In this document: piece after piece, positions 1-9,000 of the stretch | How the letters are laid out: every line of letters starts with the position of its first letter | Position numbering within the stretch: position 1 is the first letter of the stretch | From: Oligoflexus sp. | GTDB lineage: Bacteria; Bdellovibrionota_B; Oligoflexia; Oligoflexales; Oligoflexaceae | Assembly: GCA_041736305.1 (NCBI GenBank) | Contig: JBGSTX010000223.1 | Span: 1-11,548 of the forward strand | Direction of reading: 5' to 3' | Length of the DNA: 11,548 nucleotides | Made by a program: the position numbers

Positions 1-3000
1 GGGTCCATAGGCCAAGGCCCAAGAATTCATTAATAAAGCCGTCAAAATTATGAAGAAAAATCGCATCGTCGGCTCCTTCAAACGTTATGACTGCTCTATC
101 GGTCCATGCCTCGCGTATATCAAGCGCCCATCCTATGATAAAATGTTCCCTACAGAACAATACCGACAACTTATGCCTTACGAGTGATCAATGAAGCTTC
201 GGTTTCTCGTCTATCTCTGGTTACTCATCACAGGGTTCCTGGCTCACCAATACATGGTTCTTCATGATCTCATCCCAGGTCCTGATTTCACTCAGCTCGT
301 CCTTTGCAAAAAGTTTAAGCTCTGCGACTACGGCTCGCCCGCTCCCGGCCGGCCTCTCAGCTACGCTCTCGGTTGGTTGGGTTTCAGTGTGATGGCGCTG
401 ACCAATGTCTACATTCTAAGAAAGAAAATGCTTTCCCTGCAGAAGCTAGGCAATCTGCAGTCTTGGTTGAACTGGCACATTTTCTTTGGAATGTTGGGTC
501 CGACCTTTATCGTCTTTCACTGCGATTTTAAGGTGGGAGGCATCGTCAGCATCAGCTTCTGGAGTATGATCGTTTCCTTCAGTTCGGGGATCATCGGACG
601 CTACTTCTATATGCAGCTGCTGCAAGGCAAAGGCCTGCTGAAGCGAGAGATCGAAGTCCTAGAGTCGAGCTTTGACAAGTACATGCAGGCGTCGGGCCAG
701 AGGATACAGCCGCAGGCTTTACTAGCCGCTAAGGCCTATGCCTTCATGATGGTCGGGGGTGGGCCTGGGGGCACAGTCCGTGGGAAGAGTATCTTAGGAT
801 TCCTCTACTTCTCGACCTTAGGCAGCGTCCGTAGCAGTTTTCAGCTACCTCCGACTCCCTGGCCTGAAGGACGACCCTTCCGCTTGAAGTTGAAAGAGTG
901 GGCTCTCTTGAGAAAACGGCTTATTTCGATGCATTACTTTCAAATGCTCTTCGGTTACTGGCGCACCTTCCATACGCCTTTTGCCGTCTGGATGTATATA
1001 GTTGCTGTAATTCACATCATTTCATCCCTCATTTTCAAAGTATAGAGCCGCGTTAATGCCGTGAATATCGCGGCTTAAGTTCGCGACTCAAGTTTAGGGA
1101 TCGACGCGCCGATGGAAGAGTGTCAACTCTATATCGGAATCTTGCTATGCTCATGAAAATCTATTATTTAATTTCTCAATCGACCTGGCTTTTCGGGCTG
1201 GGATTTCTCATATTTCTTGCCTGGTACGGAACCCGGAAGCGCACCACTCATTTGATCGAAGCGCAAAAGCAGTGGGATGACGCCGTCGCCAAGAAAATGC
1301 ATGAGCCGCTGTCCTTACATCCAGAAATTGATCCGACTCTTTGCGGTGGCTGCGGGGCCTGCGTAGCAGCTTGCCCAGAAGGTGAGATCATCAAACTGAT
1401 CAATCATCGGGCCGTCCTCGTTGAGCCGGGCAAGTGCGTAGGTCACGGGCAGTGCGAGACAGCTTGCCCATACGATGCGATTCAACTGGTTTTTGGGACT
1501 AAAACGCGCGGTATGGAACTGCCCAGGATCGATGGAAATTTTCAGACCAATGTGCCGGGTCTCTATATCTCTGGCGAACTCGGCGGCATGGGCCTCATAA
1601 TCAACGCCGTGAAGCAGGGTCGCCTCGCTGCCGAACATGCAGCGAAGACAGTCAATCCAGGCGTGCAGGCTCAGTTCGATGTGCTAGTCGTCGGTGCAGG
1701 ACCTGCCGGTCTTTCCGCGGCATTGGCCTGCGCGGCAGCGAAACTGAAATACGTCTGCATCGAGCAAAATAAGTTCGGTGGTACCATCTATAACTTCCCA
1801 AAGCAAAAAGTGGTTATGTCCCAGCCTCTTGAATTCGCTTTGATGGGTCGCTTTAAATTCAGTAAAAATAAAGTCTCTAAGGAAGAGCTGCTCGGACTCT
1901 GGGGTCACGTTCGTCAGAAGGCTGGACTGTCCGTCAAAGAAGAGTGCCGCTTCATTAATCTGCAGAAAAAAGGCAGTATTTTTGAAGTTGAGACATCACT
2001 CGGAACCATGACCGCGCAGAAGGTGATTCTAGCCATGGGCGTGAGAGGCACACCGCGTAAGCTCGGGCTTAAAAATGAAGAGCTGAGCAAGGTCACCTAC
2101 AATTTGCTCGACCCCGAGCAGTATCAGCAGCGCTGGATAGCCGTCGTTGGTGGCGGTAACGCTGGGGTAGAGGCCGCTCAGTATCTATGTAAGGTAGACC
2201 TTCGCAATAGGGTCTTCCTCTTGGTCCGCGGGCCGACTTTCGATCGCTGCAATCAGGAAAACCAGGATATTATTTTCGACTATCAAAAGAAGGGATTGGT
2301 CACGATCTGCTTCAATTCTTCCATAGAAGAGATTCACACTGACCATCTTATAGTCAAAAAAGACGATCAACTTTTGCGCTTGCAAAACGACTTTGTCTTC
2401 ATATTTGCAGGAGCCATCATGCCCTTCGCGTTTTTGAAGAGCATAGGAGTCATGATCGAGACGAAATTCGGTGAAGCTGTTAAAAAAGCTAGCAGCTAAG
2501 GGGAATACACTTGCAAAAGCCGCGTTCTACTATCGGGCTCTTCGTCCTGCTTCTGCTCTTCCTAGAAGCTTGCGGAGGCAATACACCAGGTGTTACCACG
2601 CAGGCTTTCAAAGACCCCAGCACCCACGACCATGCGCTCTTCACCCAGCCCTGCTCCGCTTGCCATGAATATCGACGCTTGCCGCCGGCGCCCGAACTGA
2701 ACCTCGGGGCTCCGGTCTCAATACTCCATGGACTAGGTGGCAACTGCGCGGAAGCAGGCTGTCACGCCTATGCTAAAGCCGCTCCCGTCTGGAAACCGGT
2801 ATTTTTCAATCACACTCCTTATCCAAGCACCTGCTGGGGTTGCCACACTGTGACGGGTGAGAAGGCCACCCACGCGGCTCAAGGCGAATGCTCGGCTTGC
2901 CACTCCTTCCCCAAAGGTTGGAAAGGTTTGAAATAAGCCAACCTTTTCCAAGCATCCAAGCAGCTAAGCTCAGTTTCCGACTCTCGGCATTCGGTGCTTG

Positions 3001-6000: not shown

Positions 6001-9000
6001 AATAATTTTACCCAGCGGCTGCCTTTCGACCACGGCGCAACCACGGGATTTAAGATCACCGGAAAACACCAGAAATTTGAAAATCAGTGCGTGAAGTGCC
6101 ATGAGCCGACCAAGGAAAAGTTAGCGACTAAACCACCAAAAGTCATGCATCAGTTCAATTTTGATGAGCGAAAGGATCCCAATTTCTGCTCCTTCTGCCA
6201 CGTGACGGTTCACAAAGATCAGTTCAACCCCGCGACGCAGAAGCGCTCCTGCGGCGACTGTCATAATACCTCAGGCTTCCAGAAGCTCTCAGAGTTCGAT
6301 CATGATCAAACGCGCTTCAAGCTTACCGGGGCCCATGAGGACATCGGCAAGGATTGCAAGCAGTGTCACAAGCCAGGTGACATCACCTTGCCGACGAAGC
6401 CACCGCGGAAGGGTCATACCTTCATGTTTGAAGGGCAGAACCGCGGCTTCTGTGAAGAGTGCCATACCAACGAGCATAAGGATATGTTCCGCAAGGAATT
6501 CTCGAGTAGGCCTTGCGTGAGCTGTCACACGACGGAAACTTTTCAGAAACGCAAAGAATTCAATCACGAGGAGACCTCGTTTGAAATCAAAGGCAAGCAC
6601 AAGCAGGTGAAATGCGTTGAATGCCACAAGCCAACGCCGGCTCGCTACAAGCAGGAGCCACAAAATAGAAAGGGCGACTATCAGTTCCCGGAATTTAAGA
6701 CCAAAAACTGCATGACTTGCCATCGCGATGTCCACAACGGGTCGAACGGCTCTAACTGTAAAAAATGCCATAACGAAAGCGGCTGGAAATCAACGGGAGA
6801 CTATCACAAGGACTTTCTCCTCGAAGGGGTGCATCTCCAGATCGATTGCAAAGAATGCCATGTGAATGACCGCATCCTGCACGGATCGAGTCGGGAGTGC
6901 AGTCTCTGCCACGCGAAGGAAGATCCGCATAACGGACAGCTACTTCCCTGTCAGGAATGTCATACACAGAATTTCTGGAACCAGACAACTTTCGACCATA
7001 ATGTAACGAGATTCCCGCTGTGGGGAGCCCATCGGATCACCGATTGCCGCGCTTGTCATAATCAGGGTGTCTATCAGGGTCTGCCGACAGAGTGCCGTAG
7101 TTGTCATCTGCGAGATGCGGCGGGCGTCACGTCTCCTGATCATTCCCTGCCTAATTATTTTCGCTGTGAGCAGTGTCACACGCAGTATAACTTCCCGGGA
7201 GCTACACCTGGTCTCCCTTGACTCGTGATCAGGGCTTTTCTTCGGCTGCAGATTCTGCGACGATAAGCAGCTTCAGCTGGAGGAAGCTTATGAGCGTAGT
7301 TCTGCAGCAATTGACCGAACTTCTCAATCTTGACGCCATTGAGACCAATGTTTTTCTCGGCAAGAGTCAGGACCTAGGATTCGGCTCACTCTTTGGTGGC
7401 CAAGTCCTTGGCCAAGCATTAGTAGCCGCCGGGCGCACCGTCGAGCCTTCCCGCTCTTGTCATTCGCTTCACGGCTACTTTTTACGTGCTGGCAGTCCCT
7501 CTGAGCCTATCTACTACGAGGTCGACTTAATTCGTAGTGGCAAAAGCTTCTCGACTCGTCGCGTCGTCGCGAAACAGAGAGGCCTTGCTATCTTCAGCAT
7601 GTCCAGTTCATTTCAGGTCTTGGAGAAGGGTTACGAGCATCAAAGTGCGATGCCCATCGTCCCCCGACCGGAAACTCTCACTTCTGAACTTGAAATGGCT
7701 CGCCAGCATCGTGACAAGATTCCCTCTGCTGTACGCGAAAAGATGACCGCCGATCGCGCGATCGATATCAGACCCGTTGAGAGCGGCGACCCCTTTGCAC
7801 CCAGCCCAAGGCCAGCTCTTAAACATAGTTGGCTGCGAGCGATTGCAAGGATAGCTGACGATCCTATCTTGCATCAGGCTATGCTCGCTTATGCTTCCGA
7901 CTTTGGGCTGGCATCGACCTCACTCCTGCCCCACGGTGTGACCTTCTTTCAGTATTCAACCCAGGTGGCAAGTCTCGATCACAGTATGTGGTTTCACCGA
8001 CCCTTTCGCATAGATGAATGGCTGCTTTATACGAAGGATAGTCCGACGGCAAACGGAGCGCGCGGCTTCAATCGTGGGCAAATATTTAGCGAAAATGGGG
8101 ACCTCGTGGTATCGGTAGCGCAGGAGGCGTTGGTCCGGCGCTTGCGGCCTAAAACCGATGCGCCCGACAAGACCGGGGGTTTGGTCAACTGATGAGACCT
8201 ACGCGGCGAGAATTTTCCAGATTTCTCCTGGATGCTCAGGGTTTTCAATAAAGAGAGCCGCCTGCCCATCGGTGTCGGTAGCGACGAAGGCTCCTTCATA
8301 GTGCGGAAGCACGATCGTCCCTCTATCGGTATGCAATTCGATCTCACCCATGATCGCGATCGAATCCATGAAGTGGGGGCGTGGACTGGCATTGTCCTGC
8401 CAGTGGCTTTCCTCTGGCTGCGGGCCGGCTGACGCTACGAAAGTTCGCAGTATTTCCAGCTGCTGTTCCATCAGTCGCAACTGCTGTTCCATAATTCTTG
8501 TAATATCGGGCGAAGCTGGCATGGTGCGCGGCTGGCCAGCACTCATGGGGGGTTCTCCTTCGGAAGCTTGATGGGGTGCAAGCAAGAGTTCGCTTTCTAC
8601 CCAAGATTTTACAGTGTCGAGGAACTTCTGGCGGTCATCGAGCATCGTGAACAAGTGGTCGGTTTGGGGCCAGCGGAGAACCCGGATCGCCGGTCCGAAT
8701 TTCTGGGCGCCCAGCATCGCCGTAAACTGCTTTATGTGGGAAAAGTAGGCCGCAAAGCCTCCCGTGTAGATCACCAGCATTTTAATGCCCCGAGCCAGCA
8801 TTTGGTTCAGCCCCTCTCTGACCTCTTCGGGGGAAGGATAATTAGGCTCGAAGTAATCCCGCACTGATTCCAAAGACTCGCTCATGTCGCGCCTGAACGT
8901 GTGTTTTATACGGCGCAGCCAGCGCTGCAGACTGCTCACTCGTCGGAAGAAATAAAGGACGCGATGCGCAAGAGTAGGGTAAACGAAGGAGTCGACCATC

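Follow-up and report, generated by a model that had tools for sequence, protein, structure and literature searches.

Why would a member of Oligoflexus carry a giant multihaem cytochrome gene beside an outer-membrane barrel gene, and where would the electrons go? The cultured relative O. tunisiensis is a heterotrophic aerobe with aa3, cbb3, and bd oxidases and MK-7 (PMC5154148). The genome that contains our window (an 11,548-nt stretch, contig JBGSTX010000223.1 of assembly GCA_041736305.1) has three COX1-family genes, one cytochrome bd gene, and only six ORFs with at least three CxxCH motifs. Given this aerobic relative, the oxidases, and so few multihaem ORFs, no physiology demands extracellular respiration. 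In this work, we judge the chances to be about even that the five genes examined here encode a conduit across the cell envelope into which NAD(P)H feeds electrons by way of a module resembling NADPH oxidases (NOX). What the analysis shows is the genes with their motifs and modeled folds, the gene fusion, and how the cluster is conserved and distributed.

Gene content and linkage

The five co-directional genes reported in an earlier note were all recovered on the plus strand at the same positions (Table 1). The gene types given there, namely a membrane protein, a 4Fe-4S/FAD oxidoreductase, a haem lipoprotein, a barrel, and a cytochrome, also held, apart from the haem number of the lipoprotein. 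Among 14 loci fetched from the phylum of the window, BLAST places g1, g2, g4, and g5 together in 12, and all five genes in 10. A broader survey of the best 80 g1 loci out of 185,579 species genomes found g1 with g2 in 65 loci and g1, g2, g4, and g5 together in 51. The gene g5 lies directly 3' of g4 in 56 of the 58 loci with a full-length barrel, a pattern that spans distant lineages, and the intergenic gap is mostly -4 or 0 nt. One genome (G052) counts against linkage, having g1 and the barrel gene on different contigs. Within the phylum, g4 is present in 31 and g1 in 30 of 131 genomes, both in the same families; the count of 31 includes genome G000 and leaves 30 others, as previously reported.

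Table 1. Features of the five-gene cluster, with positions in the window.
Feature	Position	Strand	Basis
Cluster of five ORFs	191-7221	+	ORF calling
g1, inner-membrane protein of 284 aa; motifs of the PCC3/PCC4 IMP class, predicted b-type cytochrome with two haems	191..1045	+	motifs, AF2
g1 TM3 motif W92-x3-H96-x13-H110	464..520	+	read from sequence
g1 TM4 motif S132-G133-x-x-G136 (SGxxG)	584..598	+	S132, G133, G136 invariant
g1 TM5 motif W257-x3-H261-x13-H275	959..1015	+	W257, H261, H275 invariant
g2, 459 aa; N-terminal membrane anchor, two Fe-S motifs, TrxR/YpdA-like FAD + NAD(P)H two-domain flavoprotein	1120..2499	+	Pfam, PDB relatives
g2 Fe-S motifs CxxCxxCxxxCP (C75-P86) and CxxHxxCxxxCP (C106-P117)	1342..1470	+	alignment
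g3, tetrahaem lipoprotein of 141 aa; Cys21 of the lipobox; haem sites C48, C79 (CxxxxCH), C108, C127	2511..2936	+	motif scan
g4, 456-aa secreted protein; signal peptide 1-24, 22-strand barrel 32-439	3061..4431	+	AF2, Foldseek, VIA-align
g5, 929-aa secreted cytochrome; TTG start, signal peptide 1-22, 33 CxxCH in 11 trihaem modules (26-916)	4432..7221	+	motifs, Pfam, homologues

A membrane protein and its probable flavoprotein partner

The inner-membrane protein (IMP) of the putative PCC3/PCC4 clusters was defined by five TM helices, two WX3HX13H motifs, and one SGxxG motif (He et al. 2017, PMC5566968), and g1 carries this full motif set. Its AF2 model (pLDDT 86.5) has five long membrane helices, and the four His of the two Hx13H pairs (H96, H110, H261, and H275) are invariant among 28 aligned homologues. 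All Pfam matches are below the curated cut-offs (DUF4405 16.4 vs. 26.7 bits and Ferric_reduct 10.9 vs. 28 bits for the window protein); such sub-threshold matches involve DUF4405 in 24, Ferric_reduct in 10, and Ni_hydr_CYTB in three of the 28 family members. Haem b binding by DUF4405 proteins is reported from experiments (PMC11334425). In a fold search, the best match (Z 8.6) and those to cytochrome b561, STEAP4, b6, and FdnI (Z 6.6-7.9) are within the range expected of any helical bundle.

The flavoprotein g2 matches Pyr_redox_3 (4.2e-37) and Fer4 families in Pfam, and its closest PDB relatives are YpdA/TrxR-like (7a76, 3.3e-24). Two dinucleotide-binding motifs are present, but no redox-active CxxC disulfide. 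In the second Fe-S motif, His109 replaces the second Cys; C75, C81, C85, P86, C106, H109, C112, C116, and P117 are all invariant in 14 homologues. This TrxR/YpdA fold is unlike the FNR-like dehydrogenase of true NOX/FRE, and the donor could be a ferredoxin or a thiol instead of NAD(P)H.

A link between the two proteins, absent from the earlier note, comes from seven database proteins of 739-764 aa in which a region like g2 is joined to one like g1. In one of these (P0300), residues 36-438 share 39% identity with g2 (3e-95), and residues 506-734 match g1 (1e-14) with both WX3HX13H motifs kept. The soluble domain of the fusion proteins lies between the membrane anchor and the first helix of g1. 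This order, the positive-inside pattern read from g1, which fits a cytoplasmic location of that domain, and the lack of a twin-arginine signal in g2 lead us to predict that g2 sits on the cytoplasmic face. Judged from these sequence features, g1 and g2 would form one inner-membrane electron-export module.

Alternatively, the same hardware might work on the menaquinone pool, possibly inward, with g1 as a quinone-reactive cytochrome b and g2 as an accessory or regulatory redox protein. We regard this as unlikely, and likewise the inward version, in which the respiratory chain and oxidases would receive, through the wire, electrons drawn from Fe(II), Mn(II), or reduced humics outside the cell. 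Such a role was proposed for IMPs that carry identical motifs and come mostly from settings of Fe(II)/Mn(II) oxidation (He et al. 2017, PMC5566968). It is in line with the MK-7 of O. tunisiensis, with a host that has several terminal oxidases, and with the occurrence of two quinone-reactive dihaem proteins, FdnI and cytochrome b6, among the weak fold matches; g1 may have a quinone site, which is compatible with the data. However, the fusion connects g1 with a flavoprotein of the cytoplasmic side, as does the occurrence of g2 at 65 of the 80 loci. Inward flow is further disfavored in a heterotrophic host, and reducing NAD(P)+ from outside would be uphill, against the membrane potential. Bis-His haems of the c3/c7-like kind are low-potential as a rule, and such haems in g5 would suit export over Fe(II) oxidation at neutral pH.

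The lipoprotein, the barrel, and the cytochrome

The lipoprotein g3 had been taken for a 3-haem protein, but it has four haem sites. Besides three CxxCH motifs, it contains one CxxxxCH (C79..C84-H85) that aligns with a fourth CxxCH in eight of eight homologues, which makes it a tetrahaem protein. Across nine sequences, neither C21 nor any of the four haem sites varies.

The 33 CxxCH motifs noted previously in g5 are real and not a product of composition: the protein has 66 Cys and 74 His, and 2,000 shuffles of the same protein gave a mean of 0.35 and a maximum of 3 motifs. The "about eleven triplets" correspond to 11 tandem modules, each with three CxxCH and three conserved distal His, amounting to 28 residues per haem. 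This suggests that all haems are bis-His, with no His-Met haem indicated. Read directly from the TTG codon at 4432, the N-terminus is MSKLLRRFWIYILLLLPFMAAA/QS (the slash marks the end of the signal peptide) and is common to five homologues, in agreement with the start and signal peptide proposed earlier. The description as c7-type stands at the superfamily level (Pfam Cytochrome_C7, 1.3e-34, eight stretches) but not for the GSU1996-type domain model TIGR04257 (16.4 bits, cut-off 40). Scores also fall below the cut-offs of the DmsE/MtrA model (71.6 vs. 192.2 bits) and the GSU2203 model (54.1 vs. 325 bits). A weak match to OmcA (4.9e-4) qualifies the earlier statement that g5 lacks PDB sequence relatives, of which no other was found. 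Homologues have 24-36 haems; they differ in the middle of the chain but keep modules 1-2 and 9-11, the pattern that would be expected of a wire with two docking ends. The O. tunisiensis group has a split g5, with 9-haem and 24-haem proteins that each have their own signal peptide; this previously reported form was found again in two genomes (G073 and G066).

An independent AF2 rebuild of g4 from 24 sequences again gave 22 strands (pLDDT 83.7, pTM 0.74); its loops are short, and it lacks a plug as well as POTRA and periplasmic domains. The sequence has no match in Pfam (including MtrB_PioB), NCBIfam, or PDB. Foldseek against PDB returned 361 matches at E<=0.001; among the matches listed, all are outer-membrane barrels, and FimD is the best (1.8e-10, TMq 0.48-0.51), in accordance with the previous search, with TM-scores of about 0.3-0.5. 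In VIA-align, TonB-dependent transporters come out on top, their 22-strand barrels aligning with the model while the plug is left out (5t3r_D: Z 17.2, rmsd 5.3, 362 aligned). MtrB, which has 26 strands compared with 22 in the g4 model, gave Z 13.9 (rmsd 6.0, 335 aligned), and usher pores ranked below the transporter barrels (PapC Z 12.9 and FimD Z 12.4). As modeled, g4 is a plug-less barrel of the size of TonB-dependent-transporter barrels. The family is neither as small as the 36 members reported nor confined to the lineage of the window: we counted 193 clusters at 50% identity (E<=0.001, 1.84 billion proteins), with homologues adjoining the big cytochrome gene in loci labeled Bdellovibrionales and Bacteriovoracales. 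Loci labeled Bacteriovoracaceae and Pseudobdellovibrionaceae also hold homologues, so that the family reaches other lineages labeled Bdellovibrionota.

The best Foldseek matches to FimD ushers raise the idea that g4 is a dedicated usher or two-partner-type pore that releases g5, or in the split forms its 24-haem part, to the surface or medium. Such an export pore is in our estimate very unlikely, as is the attendant role of released g5 outside the cell, be it as a wire, as a cytochrome of the matrix, or as a shuttle. The 9-haem plus 24-haem split does resemble the periplasmic/extracellular pair of PCC3. Nevertheless, g4 lacks the plug, POTRA, and periplasmic domains of ushers and TpsB proteins, and the low TM-scores and the VIA-align ranking of PapC and FimD do not favor an usher.

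It is also quite unlikely that g5 is a periplasmic electron store or periplasm-spanning relay, like GSU1996/GSU2210, with the barrel letting a soluble substrate or shuttle pass instead of sheathing the cytochrome. A plain Sec signal without lipobox would suit this, and there are precedents in the Geobacter trihaem-domain polymers, described as periplasmic capacitors (PMC10138318), and in the "periplasmic" PCC3 cytochromes with 21, 24, or 27 haems (PMC10734462). However, g5 misses the GSU1996-type model and is tightly coupled to g4 (56 of 58 loci), and a plug-less, short-loop barrel of 22 strands would be far too wide for a solute channel and, if empty, a hole.

Known relatives and the proposed electron path

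The interpretation in the earlier note is partly supported; the likeness to porin-cytochrome conduits gains strength from the g4-g5 coupling, the plug-less barrel, its MtrB match, and the IMP motifs of g1. Like MtrCAB of Shewanella and OmbB-OmaB-OmcB/Ext of Geobacter, the cluster brings together a barrel for the outer membrane and two kinds of cytochrome, a multihaem one exported by Sec and a lipoprotein. It differs in having 33 haems in one chain, a barrel unmatched by MtrB_PioB, and an input module that is not a quinol dehydrogenase of the NapC/CymA, ImcH, or CbcL type. The Geobacter proteins GSU1996, GSU0592, and GSU2210 (12-27 haems) likewise have tandem c7/c3-superfamily trihaem modules in one Sec-exported chain, and GSU1996 is an extended 12-nm rod according to a paper title cited in PMC10138318. 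Their genes are not described with a barrel, g5 does not reach TIGR04257, and GSU1996 has one His-Met haem per domain (PMC10138318), in contrast to the three conserved distal His per module here.

Closer parallels exist with PCC3/PCC4, which were defined by genomics only (He et al. 2017, PMC5566968; Hoover et al. 2023, PMC10734462) and pair a porin with very haem-rich cytochromes and an IMP (PMC5566968). These parallels, drawn from published motifs and gene descriptions, include the porin gene beside a many-haem cytochrome, few residues per haem along with repeats inside the chain, haem numbers that rise by threes (21/24/27 in the PCC3 periplasmic subunit, 24-36 here), the conserved IMP of about 300 aa with 5 TM, SGxxG on TM4, and two WX3HX13H, and, for PCC4, a tetrahaem cytochrome and extra redox genes. 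In contrast to the extracellular and periplasmic pair of PCC3/PCC4, our cluster has one giant cytochrome and a tetrahaem lipoprotein; the barrel is a separate family without Pfam match, and a membrane-anchored Fe-S flavoprotein is linked, at times fused, to the membrane protein. Known hosts are Alpha-, Beta-, and Gammaproteobacteria, and for PCC4 also Zetaproteobacteria and Planctomycetes (PMC5566968, PMC10734462); none of the seven supplement files of these reports names Oligoflexia or Bdellovibrionota.

Evidence against a conduit comes from Desulfovibrio ferrophilus IS5. Survey HMMs for its DFE_0448 and DFE_0449 match the O. tunisiensis g5 orthologues (PMC11475568 supplement), and deletion of DFE_0448-0450 leaves Fe(III) oxide reduction unimpaired (PMC9769857). 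Among the differences, its clusters include genes for NHL beta-propellers and lack an evident porin-cytochrome conduit (PMC9769857), and it is a sulfate reducer.

For the inner membrane, NADPH oxidases/ferric reductases (FRD superfamily) and MsrQ-Fre provide a model, with two Hx13H pairs on two parallel helices. These systems also have a cytoplasmic-side flavin and NAD(P)H partner, fused in some organisms, and share the predicted outward single-electron transfer. The differences are that g1 falls short of the Ferric_reduct model, that the flavoprotein has a TrxR/YpdA-like rather than FNR-like fold and carries two Fe-S clusters, and that the acceptor would be a c-type haem chain instead of O2, Fe(III) chelate, or MsrP.

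In the NAD(P)H-fed conduit that we favor, NAD(P)H would be oxidized by g2 at the cytoplasmic face (FAD, NAD(P)H site, and two Fe-S clusters) and electrons would pass to g1. There, the invariant His residues, four in all, would ligate two haems b, one close to either face of the membrane, as in NADPH oxidases/ferric reductases; motifs and topology suggest this placement. On the periplasmic side, g3 would accept the electrons and pass them to g5, whose 33 bis-His haems in 11 modules could reach about 30 nm if extended. One end of g5 may be held in, or threaded through, the plug-less g4 barrel, and the final acceptor outside the cell may be Fe(III)/Mn(IV) minerals, humics, or O2. We infer the cofactor content, flow direction, protein-protein contacts, and acceptor in this scheme.

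Moving electrons outward through a b-type protein with two haems runs down the membrane potential, and the role is therefore likely the disposal or delivery of reducing power, for redox balancing, reductive iron acquisition, or extracellular reduction, rather than energy-conserving respiration. The cluster appears to be a variant of PCC3/PCC4, a little-studied kind of cluster defined by computation only, here in oxygen-breathing and predatory lineages.

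Gene content and distribution of the cluster

We found five co-directional open reading frames on the forward strand, as the earlier note had stated, and they encode a membrane protein (g1), an Fe-S flavoprotein (g2), a haem lipoprotein (g3), a barrel (g4), and a 33-haem cytochrome (g5), separated by gaps of 74, 11, 124, and 0 nt. The next gene encodes an acyl-CoA thioesterase II (TesB); its true start is probably an ATG at about 7290, because the family alignment begins at ORF residue 25. This gene lies beside the cluster within the genus only, and between genera its position and strand vary, sometimes to the opposite strand. 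The genes upstream of g1 show no conservation between genera. Since both flanks vary, the conserved unit is g1 to g5. The three reverse-strand genes look like a lipid- or peptide-modifying set unrelated to the cluster. Their two alpha/beta hydrolases resemble exosortase-A-associated hydrolases 1 and 2 (TIGR03100/TIGR03101), with scores below cut-off. A scan for promoters and terminators yielded no more candidates than expected by chance.

Features of the window and of homologous loci (L numbers)
Feature	Location	Strand	Size	Remark
g1, membrane protein	191-1045	+	284 aa	
g1 Cys pair CxxxxxC	305-325			residues 39-45
g2, Fe-S flavoprotein	1120-2499	+	459 aa	
g2 second Fe-S motif CxxHxxCxxxCP	1435-1470			residues 106-117
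g3, haem lipoprotein	2511-2936	+	141 aa	
g4, barrel	3061-4431	+	456 aa	
g5, cytochrome	4432-7221	+	929 aa	
Acyl-CoA thioesterase II ORF	7218-8192			TTG start overlaps g5 stop
Three genes	8199-11546	-		NRPS-type adenylation and carrier protein (cut by window end), two alpha/beta hydrolases
Split g5 (genome G073)	L031:9702-12754		9 + 24 haems	also in L040, L045, L046, L048
System II maturation gene	L069:11333-14396			ResB-like, Bdellovibrionales label
System II maturation genes	L091:10865-14532	-		ResB-like, CcsA-like
Giant cytochrome	L119:13724-18109		1461 aa, 58 CxxCH	Bacteroidales label, beside g1 and g2
Giant cytochrome	L122:13754-17122		1122 aa, 45 CxxCH	Prolixibacteraceae label, beside g1 and g2
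Giant cytochrome	L105:16003 onward		1610 aa, 45 CxxCH	Bacteriovoracaceae label, beside g1 and g2

Among 131 species genomes of the phylum, 31 encode the barrel and 30 encode g1, and the two share the same families (f1, f7, f14, f15, and one f3 genome). The cluster is kept in the 14 phylum loci that we fetched, where the big cytochrome has 24, 27, 29, 30, 33, or 36 haem sites. A g1 profile search of 185,579 species genomes confirmed 542 loci, of which the best 80 were examined. Among these best 80 of 542, g1 and g2 occur together in 65, a full-length barrel in 58, and g1, g2, g4, and g5 in 51. The big cytochrome directly follows the full-length barrel in 56 of the 58 loci, mostly with a gap of -4 or 0 nt; in the other two, overlapping ORF calls (L072) or the end of the contig (L110) account for the exception. 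A search of genome contigs with a single barrel sequence confirmed no locus, whereas the g1 profile worked.

The earlier note had considered the barrel family confined to its lineage. The family extends beyond Oligoflexia, because homologues (E-values of 1e-14 to 1e-50) were found in loci labelled Bdellovibrionales, Bdellovibrionaceae, Pseudobdellovibrionaceae, Bacteriovoracaceae, and Bdellovibrio sp.; such locus labels are those of the submitters, on metagenome-assembled genomes. Against 1.84 billion representative sequences, the g4 profile matched 193 proteins at E<=0.001, of which 142 also passed E<=1e-30, and the family has sharp sequence limits. In the Bdellovibrionales-labelled loci, g1 and the barrel gene are often separated by genes for cytochrome c maturation (ResB, CcsA). 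These loci also encode a second lipoprotein cytochrome of 10-45 haems that has a g3-like N-terminus and adjoins g2.

In Bacteroidota loci (labelled Bacteroidales, Prolixibacteraceae, and Saprospiraceae), g1 and g2 are followed by cytochromes of about 20 and 19-58 haems, and no barrel homologue was found. The secreted protein of 533-571 aa downstream has no Pfam family, and one such protein aligned with the barrel profile at an hhalign probability of 5% only. The copy in L122 may be a different outer-membrane barrel, because its C-terminus reads ...RF. The barrel profile gave no match in five Bacteroidota-, Acidobacteriota-, and Calditrichia-labelled genomes that carry g1 with g2 and giant cytochromes, an empty answer that shows little. 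The Calditrichia locus has no g2 match and the Acidobacteriota locus has g2 fragments only. Leads from the ESM Atlas point to possible clusters in Gemmatimonadota, Acidobacteriota, and Myxococcota, and the Acidobacteriota locus L120 carries g1.

The multihaem cytochrome and the barrel

The g5 protein contains 33 CxxCH motifs, 66 Cys, 74 His, and 11 Met; in 2000 shuffles of its sequence the mean was 0.35 motifs and the maximum three. Pfam matches include Cytochrome_C7 (1.3e-34, eight stretches), Cytochrom_CIII, Cytochrom_c3_2, and MtrC/MtrF domain II/IV, with scores above gathering threshold for PF14522 (118.2 bits vs. 24.8), PF02085 (75.1 vs. 22.9), and PF14537 (72.3 vs. 25). When cut at every third haem site, g5 yields 11 modules of 64-90 residues with the pattern FDH..G.H..CxxCH...CxxCH...H...CxxCH. 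Because each module has three conserved distal His, all 33 haems are expected to be bis-His coordinated.

The term "c7-type" used in the earlier note is appropriate at the Pfam superfamily level but not in the sense of GSU1996, since the corresponding model TIGR04257 scored 16.4 bits against a cut-off of 40. Based on this score, the three distal His per module, and the small number of Met, we rejected g5 as a GSU1996-type "nanowire"; GSU1996 has one His-Met haem per domain, according to the available part of PMC10138318. A single-sequence search of the PDB with g5 gave nothing meaningful, and a g5 profile against PDB sequences matched OmcA only (4.9e-4).

Among g5 homologues with 24-36 haems, modules 1-2 and 9-11 are always recognisable and in order, and gains and losses occur in the middle. 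The earlier note had reported a 9+24=33 haem form. We recovered it in the group of Oligoflexus tunisiensis, a cultured relative, where the gene is split after module 3 into 9-haem and 24-haem proteins and the second ORF opens with a separate signal peptide that leads straight into the FDH of module 4. The split is genuine and not a sequencing error.

At 28 residues per haem, and with GSU1996 as a yardstick of 12 haems in 12 nm, the 33-haem chain would reach about 30 nm, which is more than the width of the periplasm. Given a gene order that places g5 directly after a barrel, we consider a purely periplasmic electron store distinctly unlikely. The yardstick comes from a title cited in PMC10138318, as far as that source was available, and Hoover et al. 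made the same argument on reach for PCC3 cytochromes of 21-27 haems (PMC10734462).

The AF2 model of g4, built from 24 aligned sequences (mean pLDDT 83.7, pTM 0.74), shows 22 strands between residues 32 and 439. The barrel follows the signal peptide directly and makes up the only domain, and all but two of its loops are no more than about 10 residues long. Foldseek against the PDB gave 361 matches at E<=0.001, led by FimD (1.8e-10, TMq 0.48-0.51), and every listed match is an outer-membrane barrel; the 22 strands and the FimD match of the earlier note were reproduced in this way. A VIA-align comparison with 48,161 chains placed at the top 22-strand TonB-dependent transporter barrels, aligned from after their plug domains, such as 5t3r_D (Z 17.2, rmsd 5.3, 362 aligned) and FyuA (Z 16.0). 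MtrB of the Mtr complex reached Z 13.9 (rmsd 6.0, 335 aligned).

We rejected g4 as a TonB-dependent transporter: the geometry fits (Z 14-17), but there is no plug and the first strand begins at residue 32. Pfam likewise gave no Plug or TonB_dep_Rec match. Judged from the model, g4 would be a plug-less barrel of transporter size. Its lumen is probably filled, because a barrel that wide, if empty, would open a large hole through the outer membrane. The protein matched no Pfam family (MtrB_PioB included), no NCBIfam family, and no PDB sequence, whether searched singly or as a profile. Among 24 family members at E<=1, matches were scattered over OMP_b-brl (2/24), NtrZ (2/24), Porin_4 (1/24), Phage_OMP (1/24), and DUF7679 (1/24). 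A crude beta-moment scan of the alignment was too noisy for a strand count. The barrel could also export g5 instead of sheathing it, which we consider highly improbable. A predicted complex of g4 (29-456) with g5 modules 1-3 (26-266) scored 0.00 against a mark of 0.32 without controls, an outcome that argues neither way.

Lipoprotein, membrane protein, and flavoprotein

The lipoprotein g3 had been described as a 3-haem protein. We found four sites, three CxxCH and one CxxxxCH (C79..C84-H85), and neither these sites nor the lipobox Cys21 vary when the protein is aligned with eight homologues. The protein is predicted to be a tetrahaem lipoprotein. The window copy has a two-residue insertion within site 2.

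The membrane protein g1 agrees with the inner-membrane proteins (IMPs) of PCC3 and PCC4, two putative porin-cytochrome clusters, in length (284 vs. about 300 aa) and in its five transmembrane helices. In the AF2 model (pLDDT 86.5) these helices are long and span residues 2-24, 55-79, 89-110, 118-167, and 228-282. The IMPs are defined by five such helices, SGxxG on TM4, and WX3HX13H on TM3 and TM5, in the part of He et al. (2017; PMC5566968) that was available. The g1 protein has W92-H96-H110 (TM3), S132-G133-x-x-G136 (TM4), and W257-H261-H275 (TM5). The two Hx13H pairs (H96, H110, H261, and H275) are invariant in alignments of 11 and then 28 homologues, as are the SGxxG residues and W257 in the 28 sequences; W92 varies but is kept in most of them.

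Pfam and NCBIfam gave no accepted match for g1, with DUF4405 (PF14358) at 16.4 bits against a gathering threshold of 26.7 and Ferric_reduct at 10.9 against 28. At E<=1, 24 of 28 family members matched DUF4405 (best 8.1e-6), 10 matched Ferric_reduct (best 2.2e-5), and three matched Ni_hydr_CYTB. DUF4405 proteins bind haem b, according to the available part of PMC11334425. Foldseek with the g1 model gave no match at E<=0.001, and the g1 profile against PDB sequences returned only coiled-coil noise. The best VIA-align match was a designed two-haem bundle (Z 8.6), with cytochrome b561 (Z 7.9), STEAP4 (Z 7.5), cytochrome b6, and FdnI at Z 6.6-7.9, scores that any helical bundle can reach. Most Oligoflexus-type sequences also have a Cys pair in the predicted periplasmic TM1-TM2 loop, which may form a disulfide and is missing from shorter homologues that lack this loop.

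The flavoprotein g2 combines Fer4-type motifs with Pyr_redox_3 (4.2e-37), and it begins with a hydrophobic helix, after which comes RKR. Two GxGxxG dinucleotide motifs are present, CxxC is absent, and the nearest solved relatives of g2 are YpdA/TrxR-like flavoproteins (7a76, 3.3e-24). The first Fe-S motif is CxxCxxCxxxCP. In the second, the His is invariant among 14 homologues from Oligoflexia to Bacteroidota, which points to a His-ligated 4Fe-4S or 3Fe-4S cluster. In Bacteroidota homologues the first motif also occurs without its second Cys (CxxS/TxxC).

A search among longer database proteins found seven of 739-764 aa that join g2-like and g1-like parts in the order membrane anchor, flavoprotein, and first helix of g1. 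In one of these natural fusions (P0300), residues 36-438 are 39% identical to g2 (3e-95) and residues 506-734 match g1 (1e-14), with both WX3HX13H motifs kept. From the fusion order, the positive-inside loops of g1, and the lack of a Tat signal, we infer that the FAD and Fe-S clusters of g2 are cytoplasmic, with H96 and H261 near the inner membrane face and H110 and H275 near the outer. The pair is predicted to work in the manner of an NADPH oxidase (NOX) or ferric reductase, yet it is not a member of that family: the Ferric_reduct score of g1 is too low, and g2 is TrxR/YpdA-like rather than an FNR-like dehydrogenase.

Relation to known conduits and possible role

To our knowledge, porin-cytochrome conduits are the only known route by which Gram-negative bacteria exchange electrons with solids, and experimental characterisation exists for the Mtr and Geobacter types alone, PCC3 and PCC4 having been computational predictions since 2017. 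Membership of MtrCAB, MtoAB, or PioAB was rejected because g4 has no MtrB_PioB match and TIGR03508 (DmsE/MtrA) scored 71.6 bits vs. 192.2. Of the systems described in the literature, g1-g5 come closest in motifs and gene layout to the putative PCC3 and PCC4. Both have a porin beside a repeat-rich cytochrome with many haems and few residues per haem, as in g4 followed by g5 (33 haem sites, 28 residues per haem, 11 repeats). In contrast, PCC3 has separate extracellular and periplasmic giant cytochromes, whereas the window encodes a single giant protein with 33 haems and a small one with 4. The 9+24 split of the O. tunisiensis group resembles the PCC3 pair, and a second cytochrome of 10-45 haems occurs in Bdellovibrionales-labelled loci. 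The window also lacks the 4-, 5-, and 10-haem periplasmic set of PCC4, which is described in the available part of He et al. (2017) as a porin with these cytochromes, the same kind of IMP, and further redox genes (PMC5566968). A g2-like gene may already have been noted there for PCC4 (Supplementary Figure 4). The same part reports PCC3 and PCC4 from Proteobacteria, and PCC4 also from Planctomycetes; term searches of seven supplement files of that paper gave no naming of Bdellovibrio, Bacteriovorax, or Oligoflexus.

In the literature searched, we found no description of the five-gene module for Oligoflexia or Bdellovibrionota. The supplement of a 2024 survey lists the O. tunisiensis orthologues (genes 2239-2243), on which its main text is silent, and the two cytochrome halves match the HMMs of DFE_0448 and DFE_0449 from a Desulfovibrio ferrophilus cytochrome cluster (PMC11475568). 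These two D. ferrophilus cytochromes are membrane-associated and deletion of DFE_0448-0450 left Fe(III) oxide reduction intact, according to the available parts of PMC9769857 and PMC8322314. A 2022 preprint reported FeGenie matches in MAGs of Bacteriovoracia and Bdellovibrionia and speculated on extracellular electron transfer in predators. The MtrAB-like operon published for magnetotactic Bdellovibrionota is unrelated to g1-g5. The available parts of PMC11492766, PMC12133095, and PMC13013709 hold nothing relevant to the cluster, and the DFE_0448-0451 terms are absent from PMC11434368.

The source names of homologues and kinship labels place the window genome within the genus of O. tunisiensis, a heterotroph that lives aerobically and has MK-7 as well as oxidases of the aa3, cbb3, and bd types (PMC5154148, available part). 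In the genome (92.7% complete), three genes belong to the COX1 family and one encodes cytochrome bd. Only six open frames have at least three CxxCH, and g5 far exceeds the other five in size. The host is not one of the metal reducers rich in cytochromes. Three genes match Cytochrom_C_asm and none matches ResB, and the genome seems to use these other genes of the Cytochrom_C_asm family instead of ResB.

Direct observations are the gene fusion, the common phyletic pattern, and the close coupling of g4 and g5. The best-supported reading of them, for which we consider the case evenly balanced, is that g1-g5 form an envelope-spanning electron conduit. Electrons from NAD(P)H would enter the FAD and Fe-S clusters of g2, pass to two putative haems b of g1, and then move through the tetrahaem lipoprotein g3 to the 33-haem wire g5, which would be held in or pass through the plug-less g4 and deliver them to an extracellular acceptor. 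Outward flow is favoured because g1 is joined to a cytoplasmic flavoprotein of NAD(P)H type, and because electrons from outside would have to move uphill and oppose the membrane potential to reduce NAD(P)+. A version that is coupled to quinone or runs inward follows the proposal for PCC3, in which the IMP motifs were likened to a ferric reductase domain and linked to the quinone pool with inward flow (PMC5566968, available part); with g2 attached to g1, we regard it as unlikely here. For the conduit reading with outward flow, delivery or disposal of reducing power is a more likely role than respiration, because membrane potential is lost when electrons flow outward through a dihaem b protein. 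This role fits an aerobic host.

A more specific and tentative possibility, which we would not yet favour, is a quinone-independent, NAD(P)H-driven export machine, in which a split or fused NOX-like module is hard-wired to the surface through a haem chain of about 30 nm and a plug-less barrel, supplies extracellular reducing power instead of respiring, and is widespread in aerobic Oligoflexia and predatory-labelled lineages (Bdellovibrionales and Bacteriovoracales). If true, possible uses would include reductive iron capture, extracellular superoxide production, and attack on prey, and the same inner-membrane module would reinterpret PCC3/PCC4-type and Bacteroidota giant-cytochrome clusters.

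By its architecture, the cluster would be a variant of the known, so far computational, PCC3/PCC4 kind, and the variant itself is new. It gives this class a compact five-gene form in which every envelope layer is represented, and the gene fusion argues that the IMP is fed by a cytoplasmic flavoprotein and not, or not only, by quinol. Its cultured aerobic hosts are O. tunisiensis and Pseudobacteriovorax antillogorgiicola, and its presence in many Bdellovibrionales- and Bacteriovoracales-labelled genomes raises the question of what purpose a 30-haem wire serves in obligate aerobes and predators. If the NAD(P)H link is true, the cluster would represent a new coupling of the cytoplasmic redox state to the cell exterior; of the possibilities, the most interesting is that aerobic and predatory bacteria feed a haem wire by a NOX-like, quinone-independent route.
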